This document shows positions 32,479 through 53,455 of a stretch of DNA of 64,000 nt, piece by piece. Position 1 is the stretch's first letter. Each line of letters opens with the position of its first letter. The DNA comes from a virus: IMG/VR virus record IMGVR_UViG_3300045988_058566, positions 122,600 through 186,599 of that record, one strand, 5' to 3'. The notes beneath the pieces were generated by a model. It was not told the origin of the DNA and did no database searches. It was given only the letters and a program-made list of their open reading frames with translations. The translations under genes and the position numbers were made by a program.

Positions 32479-32716
32479 AACATAGTTTAGGTTCTGGAGG
32501 TTGTATTTTAATTGCTTTAAAATACTTTACTCTATGTAATTTACTTCTTCTTAATTCCTCTTTTATAAAATCTACAAATTTATCATCAGGTAAATCTGCC
32601 ATTAATACAAAGGGGTTCTCGGCATGGTCTAGATTAAGAGAAACTTTATATCCTATAGGGTCTAAATCTTCAATACGAATATCTCCTATAAAGTCTATCT
32701 AAAACTGTGTTCTCAT
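32453..32716 (-). CDS. possible small overlapping gene (87 aa)
   Basis: ATG 32716..32714 and TAA 32453-32455 are in frame; overlaps the terminase 3' end and the portal 5' end. Confidence 0.3.
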
Positions 32717-35030
32717 ATAATCTAGGATCACTTGTTTCAATTCGGTATGGGTCATTATTTTCCTCCTATTTAATTACTATTTGATTTGGTTGTTTCTTTG
32801 GAATAACCCCAAATTCTCTATAACCTTTGTCATTTATATAATATCCGTAGTCCTAAAATTCTTCAACTTCTTTGTCAACTTTTGTAGGTTGTCTTCCTGA
32901 TAATTCCTAATCTGCAAGTTCAACCATTCCAAGTGCAGCTATAATATCAAATTTTGTTTTATTCTCATCATTATAACCATTTAACTACACCAACATGTCT
33001 TCAAACCAGATATTATGTCCATAGTCTTCTACATAATCAGCTATAAGGTCTGTTTGTTGCTCTATAATAGTTTTAGTTGCAGGGGTGCCGTACTATTTAG
33101 TAGTACCATGTTTGATATCCGTTAAAGTCGCTCTAGGTCTCTTCATAAAGTATTGTAGACATTTATTTTCTCTAGCCCAAGTAATCATACCTACACGGGT
33201 AGCCTCTATATTAATTCTACAATTATAATATCTGCACATACACATAGCTATCTTATAAGCTTCTCTAATATTTTGAGGTCTGTCTTTATACATAGCTACA
33301 TATTGTGGTTCATTAAGACCGAAGGCTCTACGTTTAATTACAATACAAAAATCAGAAGGGTCTCTAGTTTCTTTAGAAGTCTAAGCAGCACCAATATCAA
33401 TACCATCAATACCCGCTACATATAAATCATTCATTTCTGTATATACAGGAGCTTCAAAATCAATCCCCTATTCTTCAGCTTCTTTCTTCTACTTCTCAAT
33501 CTGTTCTTTATATAAATCAGACCATACTGGATGCTCTAATATCTAAACTTTACCAGAATTAAGAAGCCATCTAAATCCATTTATATTTTCTAAAGAATGC
33601 TTATTAGATTTGTAAGTATAATCAATAGTTCCCACTTGTGGTCTAGGTCCAATTTTATGAAGACGTATTTTAGCTAACTAATCTGCTATCTTCATTTTAT
33701 TAAATTTATTCTAACCTTCAAGAGTAAATGCTTCTTCTGCATTCCAGCAACGCTCAGCACACTTTTTAAGGTAGTCTTCAGGAACAGCTAACAGATTATT
33801 TCTTTCTTCTTGTAATATCTTCTTATATTCTGTCTAATTACAAACTCCTCTAGAATCCATGTATTCAGGATTCAAAGATTGCAGAAAATAAGGAAGAAAG
33901 AATCCACTCTCTATAGTAGTTCCGTCTTGTGTCCATTTATGTCTAAATGGTAGAATCTTAAAAGCCTTAGGATTATAATAAATCTTTTTTAATCCTTCAA
34001 GAGGAGGACCGAAATCACCTCCAGTACCACCAAATAACATAATACCTCTAGGAACACCTTGTACTTCACATAACTCTTGTCCTTGTACTACAGCAGTGGT
34101 TAAATCAGGCCACGAACCAGCCTCATCATAAATAAGAAGATCAACACGGTCACCACGAATATTAGAAGGCTTGCTTCCATTAATTCCTATTACAACAGAA
34201 CGCCATCCAAAGTCTGTGAACTGACCATCTATTTTAACTTGGTATCCTGATTTCTTTTCTAGGGCTTTATCTGTTAATCTAGGCTTAAAAAATCCATCAG
34301 CATTCGTATTAATAAATGTGAGAGCATGGTCTAACTTACTAAAGGTACCATTTAAATAGGTATCTTTAAAGCAGGTAATCATAGTTCTACTTCTCTTTAT
34401 AGTAGTGTATAGTCTAGCTGCAAGAGAAGCATTTATCTCACTGAAACCAATTGAACGGGCTTTCATTAAAGCAGCATTTTTATGTAGTACTCTACACATC
34501 TATAAATAATGAAAGAACATATATTGAGAAGCAAAGAATACCGGAAAACTTTCATTAGTACCTTCACCTGATGCTTTATCCATATCTACTACTGGTAACT
34601 AATAAAAATTTAAGAAGAAATAGTTATCTCCAGTAATAGTATATCCATGTGAGGTCATACCATATTTACATCTAGTATATTGTTCTTTCCAAAATGCATC
34701 CCATCTTTTACTTCTAGGTAAATAAGAACAATATCTTCCAGTTCTTAGAAATGTTTCTCTAACTTCGGTAAACCATGAGGGGTCAAAATCTAAACCATGA
34801 GTTTCATCTATAGGTCTATAACCAGTTAATTCATAAGATAAAGTAGGATCAAAACATTCTATTTTCATATCCTTAGTAATATCCCAATATGTCTTATCAT
34901 TAGAACGTTCAATTCTATATTCATCAACTAATTTCTTAGCTTCTTTAGTGTCTTCTTCCTACTATTTCTTTTTTACTTCATCTACAATTAACTAGATTTC
35001 ATCAGGTAATACTTTCTTCTTTCTAGGCAT
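32670..35030 (-). CDS. terL: terminase large subunit (786 aa, TAG-containing)
   Basis: Fragments 33093, 33834 and 34599 and start ATG 35030 share a frame. Gaps 33294-33836 and 34500-34601 were checked and contain only TAG. Motifs MKARSIGFS (Walker A-like), DLLIYDEAG (Walker B) and VAGIDGID (nuclease Asp). Stop TGA 32670-32672. Confidence 0.8.
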
Positions 35031-42269: not shown

Positions 42270-42295
42270 AATATGTATCTTTTATAATTAAATTG

Positions 42296-42367
42296 TTCTC
42301 TCACAAGGATTCGAACCCTGACTAAAAGATTTAGAGTCTTCTGTGCTAACCATTACACCATAAGAGA
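42296..42367 (-). tRNA. amber suppressor tRNA, anticodon CTA, Gln-like body
   Basis: Minus-strand cloverleaf: tctctta tg gtgt aatggtta gcac a gaaga CT-CTA-AA tcttt tagt caggg ttcgaat ccttg tgagaga a. All four stems pair and the T-loop is canonical. It shares U1-A72, the D-arm (gtgt..gcac) and the variable loop (tagt) with the phage tRNA-Gln(TTG) at 53486. Confidence 0.9.
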
Positions 42368-46381: not shown

Positions 46382-46722
46382 GCGGATAACACAATCGAGA
46401 CGGAAACGGCTGCAAGGTGGCGCTGGAGTGGGAGAGTGGTTTTTACTACTTTCCCATTACAAGTGAATTTTCAAACATTGGGGGCATAAGTAACTCACAC
46501 TCCAATGTTTTAGTGAAACATAAATTAAAGTCATAATTAAATAGGGATTAGAAACCTTTTAGTGTATAGGTTAACTAATAATAGCTTATGCAAAAATAAA
46601 ACTCAGCTAGGGAGAGTATAAAATTCATGTTGATGAGACCTAGACGAAACACAGAGGAAAATTATTAATTACAAGATAGTATTAGTAATGACTCTGTGTC
46701 CATAAACTAAAATAAGTAAAAA

Positions 46723-47073: not shown

Positions 47074-47750
47074 ACTAAAAACACCTGAGCAAGTGTATAA
47101 ACTGCTGTGTTTAATCTAAAAAATCTGGCTAGGATATATCTAGCTATAGGTTGCCGTACTACAGTCGGAAAGTAATACAGGGTATTGTGTAAAACCTGTT
47201 CCTATTTAATATGTTTTAAATTAAGTTAAAAAATCATCCTAATATATAGCTAAATAGTAGAACGGGTGTTTATCCTTTTATAGGTTTGTGCAGGAAGTAT
47301 TTAGCGCGTCGTAACACATTGAAAGTATTACTGGTAGAACTAAAGTATTAAAAGACTTTAGAAGTAAGAAAGCGTAAAGACAGTTAGTAGAGGGGATAGT
47401 AAGTGTTGAAGGACTCTACAAAAGCGAGGAGATTGCTTTAATATCTCTTCTCGTGCATGGGATAGAACGTGTACTAAGTTAGAGCATGATAGACTATAAA
47501 GCTCATTTTTTAAATTATTTACAGATGTATTTGCCACAGATATATTCTTTCGATGTCTATATAAGAAAGAACAAAATATATCTGGTTACACGGCTTAGTA
47601 AACTTGATAGACTACCTAACTAGGGTAAAAACTAATTCGTCATCCAGAAGACGTTAAAAATCATACTGATGAGGCTGGACGAAATAGTTAATAACAGTTG
47701 TACGTTATTAACTATCTATGAACAATTAAATAAGTAATTTAAAATTTGAT

Positions 47751-51818: not shown

Positions 51819-51892
51819 GCTCCCATAGCTCAATTGAATAGAGCAACAGCCTTCTAAGCTGTGGGTTTCCAGTTTGAATCTGGATGGGAGCA
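51819..51892 (+). tRNA. tRNA-Arg (TCT)
   Basis: gctccca ta gctc aattgaata gagc a acagc CT-TCT-AA gctgt gggtt tccag tttgaat ctgga tgggagc a; all stems pair. Confidence 0.9.
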
Positions 51893-51975
51893 CAACTACA
51901 AGTTACAACAAAGATATTTAAAATATTTTCAAGTTGTAATAATTGTGAATTAAAATAGGTCGACAAAATATTGTT

Positions 51976-52584: not shown

Positions 52585-52657
52585 GGAGATATAGCTTAGA
52601 AGGTCAGAGCGCGGGACTGAAAATCCCGAGATTGTGGTTCGATTCCACGTATCTCCA
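52585..52657 (+). tRNA. tRNA-Phe (GAA)
   Basis: ggagata ta gctt..gagc g cggga CT-GAA-AA tcccg ... tgtgg ttcgatt ccacg tatctcc a. Confidence 0.9.
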
Positions 52658-52661
52658 CTAT

Positions 52662-52751
52662 ATACGGATGCCTGAGTGGTCGAAAGGATAGGTCTCCAAA
52701 ACCTATAGAGACGAAAGTTGAACAACGTGGGTTCGAATCCTACTCCGTGTG
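52662..52751 (+). tRNA. class II (long variable arm) tRNA with anticodon CCA, Ser-like body
   Basis: atacgga tg cct gagtggtcgaa agg a taggt CT-CCA-AA accta [21-nt variable region] gtggg ttcgaat cctac tccgtgt g. The D-loop is identical to that of the phage tRNA-Ser(GCT); discriminator G. Confidence 0.7.
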
Positions 52752-52768
52752 CAAATTAATTATAATTA

Positions 52769-52854
52769 GTTCCCTTAGCTCAGTTGGTTCCGCAAGGCTA
52801 GAGAGCATCGGACTTTTAATCCGAGGGTCATGGGTTCGAACCCCATAGGGAACA
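52769..52854 (+). tRNA. tRNA-Lys (TTT) with a 21-nt D-loop
   Basis: gttccct ta gctc [agttggttccgcaaggctaga] gagc a tcgga CT-TTT-AA tccga gggtc atggg ttcgaac cccat agggaac a; otherwise canonical. Confidence 0.75.
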
Positions 52855-52889
52855 CCTCATGTTATTCAAAGGTTAAAGAAACATTATAA

Positions 52890-53064: not shown

Positions 53065-53137
53065 GGCACTATCGTCTACCTGGTTAGGACGCCACTCTTT
53101 CAAGGTGGAAAAACGAGTCTGAGTCTCGTTAGTGCTG
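53065..53137 (+). tRNA. tRNA-Glu (TTC)
   Basis: ggcacta tc gtc tacctggttag gac g ccact CT-TTC-AA ggtgg aaaa acgag tctgagt ctcgt tagtgct g. Confidence 0.85.
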
Positions 53138-53255: not shown

Positions 53256-53328
53256 GGTCCGTCTAGTGTAACTGGTAACACGGTAGTTTGTGAGACTACA
53301 ATACAGGGTTCGAATCCCTAGCGTGACC
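53256..53328 (+). tRNA. tRNA-His (GTG) with G-1:C73 but three acceptor-stem mismatches
   Basis: g gtccgtc ta gtgt aactggta acac g gtagt TT-GTG-AG actac ... aggg ttcgaat ccct a gcgtgac c; positions 4-6 (cgt) face cgt. Confidence 0.6.
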
Positions 53329-53333
53329 CTATT

Positions 53334-53421
53334 GGAGAAATGACTGAGTGGTCGAAAGTGGCACCCTGCTAAGGTGCTAGTCATGTTATGTGGCTCGAAG
53401 GTTCGAATCCTTCTTTCTCCG
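53334..53421 (+). tRNA. tRNA-Ser (GCT)
   Basis: ggagaaa tg act gagtggtcgaa agt g gcacc CT-GCT-AA ggtgc [19-nt variable arm] gaagg ttcgaat ccttc tttctcc g. Confidence 0.9.
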
Positions 53422-53455
53422 CAACATTTATGACAAATTGTGAACTTGTAGTTGG

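Follow-up and report, generated by a model that had tools for sequence, protein, structure and literature searches.

A 64,000-nucleotide stretch of viral DNA (positions 122,600 to 186,599 of IMG/VR record IMGVR_UViG_3300045988_058566), which we call the window, carries at 52662-52751 on the plus strand a tRNA gene that combines the tryptophan anticodon CCA with the long variable region of a class II tRNA. We refer to this gene as tRNA(CCA). Coordinates are positions in the 64-kb window, and L-numbers are locus labels of the contigs examined. ARAGORN, which found 11 tRNA genes in the window, predicted a tRNA-Trp(cca) at 52662-52752 (+) with the anticodon at position 35, and the tRNA model of Rfam matched 52662-52751 from end to end with 50.2 bits against a gathering score of 29 (E = 2.2e-8). 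The anticodon given by ARAGORN agrees with that of an earlier sequence-only reading.

The whole gene is 90 nt long and of class II shape, as supported by ARAGORN, Rfam and the covariation of its family, and its 3' CCA is not encoded. The 5' strand of the acceptor stem, ATACGGA (52662-52668), pairs with TCCGTGT (52744-52750) over 7 bp, one of them U2·G71, so that the outer pairs are A1-U72, U2·G71 and A3-U70. Positions 8 and 9 are T8 and G9, and position 26 is A26. The D arm (52671-52687) has the class II, Ser-like form with a 3-bp stem (CCT / AGG) and an 11-nt loop, GAGTGGTCGAA, which is letter-identical to the D loop of the tRNA-Ser(GCT) at 53334-53422. In the anticodon arm (52689-52705), a 5-bp stem (TAGGT / ACCTA) closes the loop CTCCAAA at 52694-52700, with the anticodon CCA at 52696-52698 and both U33 and A37 present. 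The variable region of 21 nt (52706-52726) is followed by the T arm GTGGG-TTCGAAT-CCTAC (52727-52743), which contains a G51·U63 wobble pair, and by the discriminator G73 at 52751. All of these elements are read directly from the plus strand, and the structural description given in the sequence-only reading (90 nt, 3-bp D stem, shared D loop, 21-nt variable region, G73, CCA loop and its stem) was correct in every detail.

Orthologs of 91-92 nt were found in MT835539, Lak-C1, Lak-A1 and Lak-B1 at 72-92% identity, and compensatory changes occur in every stem among the window, MT835539 and Lak copies. The orthologs in the Lak phages and MT835539 carry CCA and not the normal Ser anticodons that, by the earlier reading, would have spoken against its proposal. 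A Lak ortholog is already listed as "Trp CCA" in Supplementary Table 2 of Devoto 2019, where tRNAscan-SE scored it at 55.57 and 56.95 and its shape was left uncommented. A pattern scan of IMG/VR, which required the class II D loop together with the CTCCAAA loop and could therefore return only CCA, gave 64 loci with 53 long (84-92 nt) tRNA(cca) genes. About 40 sequences among these are distinct, and many of the carriers are contigs of 100-550 kb. When the cloverleaf was imposed on a 30-member alignment, 99.3% of the cells were paired, 18/20 pairs had changed on both sides, and the covariation score was 0.898, compared with 0.214 after shuffling and 0.08-0.19 with the partners slid, which places the structure far above chance. 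The anticodon loop CTCCAAA, which the search pattern itself demanded, is invariant in 30/30 members. Strictly kept across the family are the anticodon loop, U33, A37, the T loop, G18-G19 and the 7/5 branch of acceptor and T stems.

In cells the arrangement is rare. The combined pattern was found only 11 times in 185,579 species genomes. Five of these matches adjoin other tRNA genes and have A1-U72 and G73, three of them in arrays of 10-17 tRNAs and two with one to three neighbours, and the remaining ones have Ser-type acceptors (Saccharibacteria and a metagenome-assembled genome (MAG) of Alphaproteobacteria) or degenerate acceptor stems. As sampled by a pattern that requires the D loop, the predicted family of long tRNA(CCA) is essentially phage-borne. 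Two of the cellular cases, L071 3421-3512 on the Saccharibacteria chromosome OZ246406.1 and L073 684-774 in the Alphaproteobacteria MAG, are solitary class II tRNA(CCA) genes with the Ser-type acceptor G1-C72, G2-C71 and G73. L073 has a mismatch in its anticodon stem and resembles a mutated tRNA-Ser(CGA), with CCA where CGA would be expected. These two would be either true Ser-bodied readers of UGG or pseudogenes. Four further matches that resemble a class-II-shaped tRNA(CCA), L072, L075, L079 and L074 (two Ferruginibacter, one Alistipes and one Prevotellaceae MAG), keep only the inner four acceptor pairs and may be truncated copies, e.g., remnants of integration sites.

The look-alike L073, with its Ser-type acceptor, anticodon-stem mismatch and CCA for CGA, is the kind of gene expected if the phage tRNA(CCA) were a pseudogene or a decaying copy of tRNA-Ser with a mutated anticodon, and the phage relatives L022 and L024 show damage as well, both having lost 7 nt and L024 having an A5·C68 mismatch. 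The sequence-only reading had listed a decaying gene among its options. Decay is countered by the covariation score of 0.898, by near-perfect pairing over about 40 distinct sequences, by the invariant CCA loop, and by the good Rfam and tRNAscan scores, and we regard this explanation as scarcely credible.

We then compared the gene with what is known of Trp and Ser identity. It shares with bacterial-type tRNA-Trp (E. coli, B. subtilis) A1-U72 as a weak first pair, G73, and the anticodon CCA in a 7-nt CUCCAAA loop where U33 is present and position 37 is a purine, but departs from this class I tRNA in its 21-nt variable region (4-5 nt in the bacterial type), its 3-bp D stem, its 11-nt D loop and its G9. 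With bacterial and phage tRNA-Ser it shares the class II D arm, including the D loop of the window tRNA-Ser(GCT), the long variable region and G73, whereas it has no Ser anticodon (NGA or GCU) and no stable arm of Ser geometry, its acceptor begins with A1-U72 and U2·G71 in place of G1-C72 and G2-C71, and it has G51·U63. Bacterial Trp identity depends on the anticodon, G73 and the first pair (PMC9976931); the sequence-only reading had named the first two of these.

The acceptor end of the family follows tRNA-Trp. None of the 39 distinct long CCA tRNAs has G-C at 1:72; 24 begin with A-U, 12 with G·U and 3 with U-A. G1-U72 is a Trp element in a bacterial-type system (PMC9976931). G73 is present in 39/39 of them and in 4/4 of the short class I tRNA-Trp genes found in the same contigs. 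These four short copies have the same acceptor pattern as the long ones, and in L005 and L044 the first three acceptor pairs are identical between the short and the long copy. The tRNA-Ser genes of the same contigs look different: G1-C72 occurs in 27/30, G2-C71 in 28/30 and A3-U70 in 26/30, compared with 0/39 for G1-C72 and 4/39 for G2-C71 in the long CCA tRNAs. The commonest 2:71 pair in the family, carried also by Lak-A, -B and -C, is C2-G71, an antideterminant against seryl-tRNA synthetase (SerRS), and G73 is an antideterminant against the leucyl and tyrosyl enzymes (LeuRS and TyrRS; PMC9976931).

The T stem also separates the two identities. G51·U63 was found in 30/37 long CCA tRNAs and in 3/4 short tRNA-Trp genes, whose T stem GUGGG / CCUAC is shared by the window copy; elsewhere it is scarce, with 1/30 in Ser, 0/31 in Leu, 0/11 in Tyr and 17/317 in other tRNAs. 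The pairs 49:65, 50:64 and 51:63 of the T stem tune the affinity of EF-Tu to the esterified amino acid. Because of this tuning, we infer that a Trp-specific T stem fits a tRNA that carries tryptophan.

The variable region behaves differently from that of the phage tRNA-Ser genes. The most that folding gave in the window copy is a marginal 3-bp hairpin, GAC-GAAA-GUU (-0.2 kcal/mol), flanked by 4 unpaired nt on its 5' side and 7 on its 3' side. A stable Ser-type helix with about one unpaired nt on each side is therefore absent from the window copy; it is present in the Lak-A, -B and -C copies, whose arms form helices of 6-8 bp with one unpaired nt on each side, a Ser-like geometry. The statement in the sequence-only reading that the gene has all the hallmarks of a seryl tRNA is borne out by the D arm, the long variable region and G73, and fails at the A1-U72/U2·G71 acceptor end and at the arm, which is long but does not fold into a Ser-type helix. 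The variable arm of the phage tRNA-Ser is near-uniform (one unpaired nt, a 5-7 bp stem, one unpaired nt), whereas those of the long CCA tRNAs are heterogeneous, being Ser-like in 8 (Lak included), Tyr-like in about 9, where a stem of 3-5 bp is followed by three unpaired nt, and without a stable hairpin in 10. Within the clade of the window copy, 6/21 sites vary in the variable region and 5/69 in the rest of the tRNA. An arm with such an inconstant geometry and such variability is not what would be expected under selection for recognition by SerRS. The deletion of 7 nt from the variable region in L022 and L024 was considered as a proof that the arm is dispensable, but we gave it little weight because these contigs carry other tRNA defects, namely the mismatch in L024 mentioned above and a tRNA-Ser without part of its T arm in L022.

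Long arms are also found on other tRNAs of the same contigs, where long-armed versions of 16 other normally short-armed anticodon types, counted as 15 amino acids, were detected. Among them are Ala, Arg(UCU), Asn, Asp, Cys, Gln, Glu, His, Ile, Lys, Met, Pro and Thr, and their variable arms are 10-25 nt long (loci L012, L015, L018, L034, L035, L037, L045, L048, L053, L054, L066, L070 and L077, and further L001, L002, L022, L058 and L065). Each long-armed type keeps the discriminator of its own isotype, e.g., U73 in Cys, C73 in His, A73 in Pro and G73 in Asn, and most keep the 1:72 pair of the isotype, e.g., C1-G72 in Pro and U1-A72 in Asn, the exceptions being Met, Ile and one His copy. Since the long-armed types keep their own marks, a long arm is no signal of Ser identity in these phages. 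Long arms on normally class I tRNAs appear to characterise the tRNA arrays of these phages in general.

The meaning of UGG in the phage was read from the terminase-like gene. In 79 homologs with 26-61% identity, which are representatives of 50% clusters of the terminase-like protein, the residues aligned with its 12 TGG codons are W, Y, F or H and in no case S; at position 114, for example, W occurs in 58/78 and Y in 14/78 homologs. A PDB sequence search with the terminase-like protein returned chance matches only. As judged from these alignments, UGG stands for an aromatic residue in the phage. TGG accounts for 13.2 per 1000 codons of the window's open reading frames (ORFs). One suggestion of the sequence-only reading was a Ser-inserting decoder of UGG. 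In the form weighed here, SerRS alone would charge the tRNA through the extra arm and the phage would deliberately recode or mistranslate UGG. The class II shape, the Ser-like D arm and G73 would suit such a decoder, for which allo-tRNAs and nematode nev-tRNAs offer precedents of non-cognate anticodons on class II bodies. It conflicts with the aromatic residues aligned to TGG in the 79 homologs, with an acceptor end and a T stem that match tRNA-Trp rather than tRNA-Ser, with an arm geometry that is not conserved, and with the cognate discriminators of the 16 other long-armed anticodon types, and we consider it very unlikely.

Five independent lines, namely the acceptor end, the T stem, the variable arm, the meaning of UGG and the other long-armed tRNAs, thus point to Trp. 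We conclude that the gene is probably a functional, class-II-shaped phage tRNA-Trp that reads UGG as tryptophan and is charged, we infer, by the tryptophanyl-tRNA synthetase (TrpRS) of the host; of the options considered in the sequence-only reading, a Trp tRNA with an unusual architecture is the one backed by the acceptor end, the T stem, the UGG alignments and the conservation of the family. A tRNA-Phe(GAA) predicted by ARAGORN lies 3 nt upstream (52585-52658, +), the Phe-Trp gene pair is kept in relatives, and the two genes are probably co-transcribed. In the proposed course of events, tRNA(CCA) would be transcribed together with this tRNA-Phe and then processed, and its 3' CCA would be supplied by a CCA-adding enzyme of the host or the phage. 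A bacterial-type TrpRS of the host would then charge it by reading the CCA anticodon, G73 and the weak A1-U72 pair. SerRS would be kept off by the missing G1-C72/G2-C71, and in many members also by C2-G71, and LeuRS and TyrRS would be kept off by G73. A crude motif scan for a phage TrpRS detected no ORF with the pair of HIGH and KMSKS motifs in the window or in the whole Lak-A1 genome, and the main text of the Lak paper mentions no synthetases; charging is therefore presumably the work of host enzymes.

Several observations weigh against this conclusion. Position 9 is G in the window copy, while A9 is reported for Trp identity in B. subtilis. The D-loop part of the search pattern skewed the family sample to Ser-like D arms. 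Our search of the literature found no experimental demonstration that TrpRS tolerates a long variable arm. SerRS mainly reads the size of the extra arm together with G73 (PMC9976931), and the window tRNA has both a long extra arm and G73. In addition, the good helix of Ser geometry in Lak-A, -B and -C makes some serylation possible there.

The last two points raise the alternative of a dual identity, in which TrpRS and SerRS would both charge tRNA(CCA) and some UGG codons would be read as Ser, most likely in Lak-A, -B and -C. The long variable region with G73, the D arm identical to that of tRNA-Ser and the variable stem of the Lak orthologs, which has 6-8 bp and one unpaired nt on each side as in tRNA-Ser, are consistent with it. 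However, G1-C72 and G2-C71 are absent, the Lak copies carry the SerRS antideterminant C2-G71, the arm of the window copy barely folds (3 bp, flanked by 4 and 7 unpaired nt), and the TGG positions are conserved as aromatic residues. We therefore judge dual charging to be improbable, although less so than charging by SerRS alone.

In the complete Lak-A1 genome (541,664 bp), ARAGORN found 32 tRNAs, and the sole CCA anticodon belongs to the long-armed one. In L018, L044, L064 and L005, the long tRNA(CCA) and an ordinary short tRNA-Trp are both present, which suggests that the two are not simply redundant. This would be accounted for if the long version had a role off the ribosome, as a decoy or sponge for a tRNA-targeting nuclease or toxin of the host or as a regulatory RNA of another kind. 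There are documented cases in which phage tRNAs neutralise tRNA-cleaving defences (van den Berg 2023, PMC10264068; the T5 tRNA-Lys against PARIS, PMC11464382; a tRNA-Tyr against retron/Septu, PMC11555353). The anticodon loop, U33, A37, the T loop, G18-G19 and the 7/5 branch are nevertheless all kept, the T stem remains of the Trp type, and the long-armed gene is the only tRNA(CCA) of Lak-A1, as expected of a translating tRNA. A purely non-translational role is thus distinctly unlikely.

A translating tRNA-Trp may still differ from the host version for reasons of defence. Like the defence-escaping phage tRNAs, tRNA(CCA) is structurally unlike the host version while its decoding is kept; in those tRNAs the anticodon loop is altered or the changes are small, whereas tRNA(CCA) has a whole extra arm, and the link is a hypothesis only. 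To our knowledge, no tRNA-Trp-targeting nuclease has been described in these hosts. Our leading guess is that the extra arm alters how tRNA-targeting nucleases or other tRNA-binding factors see the tRNA and leaves its amino-acid identity unchanged. Given the structural novelties of the tRNAs of this clade and the existence of defence-evading phage tRNAs, the idea of a "structural disguise" is reasonable. Its broader form, in which phages systematically add long arms or other expansions to tRNAs that are class I in cells, thereby set them apart in structure from the tRNAs of the host, keep their cognate charging and so escape nucleases of host defence or phage shut-off, is tentative, and we lean against it.

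Among other known tRNAs with long arms or unusual anticodons, none has quite this design. The allo-tRNAs or (8/4) tRNAs of bacteria and phages (Mukai et al. 2017, PMC5389517) likewise have a long variable arm, G73 and non-Ser anticodons, and some are phage-borne, but theirs is an 8/4 or 9/3 branch with a long D stem and a tetraloop, whereas tRNA(CCA) has a 7/5 branch, a 3-bp D stem and an 11-nt loop. A tRNA-Sec needs the anticodon UCA, an 8/5 branch and a 6-bp D stem, in contrast to the CCA and 7/5 branch found here. The nearest conceptual parallel is the nematode nev-tRNAs (Hamashima et al. 2012, PMC3333845), which are described as nematode-specific, decode an alternative code for leucine and place class I anticodons on class II bodies. 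On this description, nev-tRNAs keep a class II identity, whereas the identity marks of the phage tRNA(CCA) follow its anticodon. For phages, our literature search found no description either of a class II tRNA-Trp or of long-armed class I isoacceptors as a general set.

The genome that carries tRNA(CCA) has features of a recoded gut phage. With TAG taken as sense, 62.0 kb of the window lies in stop-to-stop ORFs of 100 aa or more, compared with 27.9 kb when the standard code is applied. In-frame TAG is found mainly in the structural block of the minus strand (159-39338), where it reaches up to 66 per gene, and the plus-strand genes around the tRNA cluster (43210-63745) contain few or none. Such a distribution agrees with the recoding of late genes that has been reported in recoded gut phages. 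Neighbouring ORFs encode small hypothetical proteins. A 73-nt tRNA(CUA) at 42295-42367 (-), labelled "Pyl" by ARAGORN, has a D arm that resembles that of the phage tRNA-Gln(UUG); given the gain in ORF coverage with TAG as sense, it fits a recoding of TAG to Gln. The tRNA cluster is 72-88% identical to that of the Prevotella Lak megaphages, and the record closest to it is MT835539.1, a phage contig from human faeces. The terminase-like protein (32670-35030, -) has at least 120 near-identical copies, with 99-100% identity among the matches listed, and many of these copies lie on contigs of about 185-195 kb. The source is a TAG-recoding phage of about 190 kb that is abundant in the gut and is related to the 540-kb Lak phages without being one of them.

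In view of the single substitution that separates CCA from CTA or TCA, the sequence-only reading had also suggested a former or latent suppressor, an idea that gained no support. The UCA version of the family pattern gave 32 matches in IMG/VR with no tRNA among them. With CUA in the pattern, 7 class II tRNAs were recovered, and the ARAGORN 3' ends of all of them put A at position 73. Such class II tRNA(CUA) loci are L124 8838-8923, L126, L129, L132, L133 and L137, on IMG/VR contigs of up to 435 kb. In L124, the only tRNA(CUA) whose acceptor was read, by eye, the stem begins with G1-C72, G2·U71 and G3-C70. The anticodon stem and T arm of L124 are common to a member of the CCA family, and the two may be related.

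Other tRNA genes around tRNA(CCA) are unusual as well. The tRNA-Lys(UUU) at 52769-52856 (+; 65.9 bits with Rfam) has a 14-nt insertion in its D loop, and its anticodon was misread by ARAGORN; among relatives, the insert is missing from L010 and L058 (74 nt), is 5 nt long in L032 and has the same 14 nt in L065. A conserved tRNA body of 73-76 nt at 55561-55633 (+) differs among close relatives in its anticodon loop: the anticodon is AUA in the window, GUA in L058 767-840 (Tyr, without a long arm) and CCU in L065 7249-7324, and the loops of L032 6574-6648 and L022 3320-3393 are of odd length, so that the loop looks hypervariable. Upstream of the Phe-Trp pair, the slot for Arg(UCU) holds an ordinary 75-nt tRNA in the window (51819-51893, +), L006 and L032, and an unrelated long-armed gene of 85-86 nt in the sisters L001 2242-2327, L022 7080-7164, L058 6637-6721 and L065 1269-1353. 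This difference is a cassette replacement and not an indel. Rfam also matched three tRNAs that ARAGORN missed, at 55106-55210 (+), 53065-53137 (+) and 53257-53328 (+); one is a 105-nt match of 34.6 bits, possibly with an intron or insert, one is Glu(UUC)-like (49.2 bits) and one is His(GUG)-like (34.9 bits).

Two further features of the region lie outside the tRNA genes. In the TAG-poor region upstream of the tRNA cluster, two matches to the RAGATH-1 hammerhead ribozyme of Rfam were found at 46600-46705 and 47637-47721 (+), with 68.1 and 62.0 bits against a gathering score of 56.3. At 56921-59778 (+), five tandem paralogous ORFs of 133-147 aa all start with MCW and share motifs such as YKV, GYHSY and ATFIIPKGS.

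By the standard rule, only the tRNAs for Leu, Ser, Tyr (in bacteria) and Sec are long-armed, and the arm is the main identity mark for SerRS. A conserved and widespread long-armed phage tRNA-Trp, together with its sister cases, would imply that cognate synthetases such as TrpRS tolerate the arm, that antideterminants in the acceptor stem suffice to exclude SerRS, and that phages have some reason to maintain the arm. In the Lak copies with a Ser-like arm, partial serylation may create a programmed ambiguity between Ser and Trp at UGG. The family also serves as a caution for annotation pipelines, in which genes of this kind are flagged as Ser/Trp mismatches or as pseudogenes. The family offers a natural test set for the rules of Ser and Trp identity, and the extra arm is possibly a new form of phage tRNA "disguise" against tRNA-cleaving defences. 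The value of the finding lies mainly in the fact that the tRNA at this locus belongs to a widespread family, which is itself part of a broader pattern of long-armed phage tRNAs.

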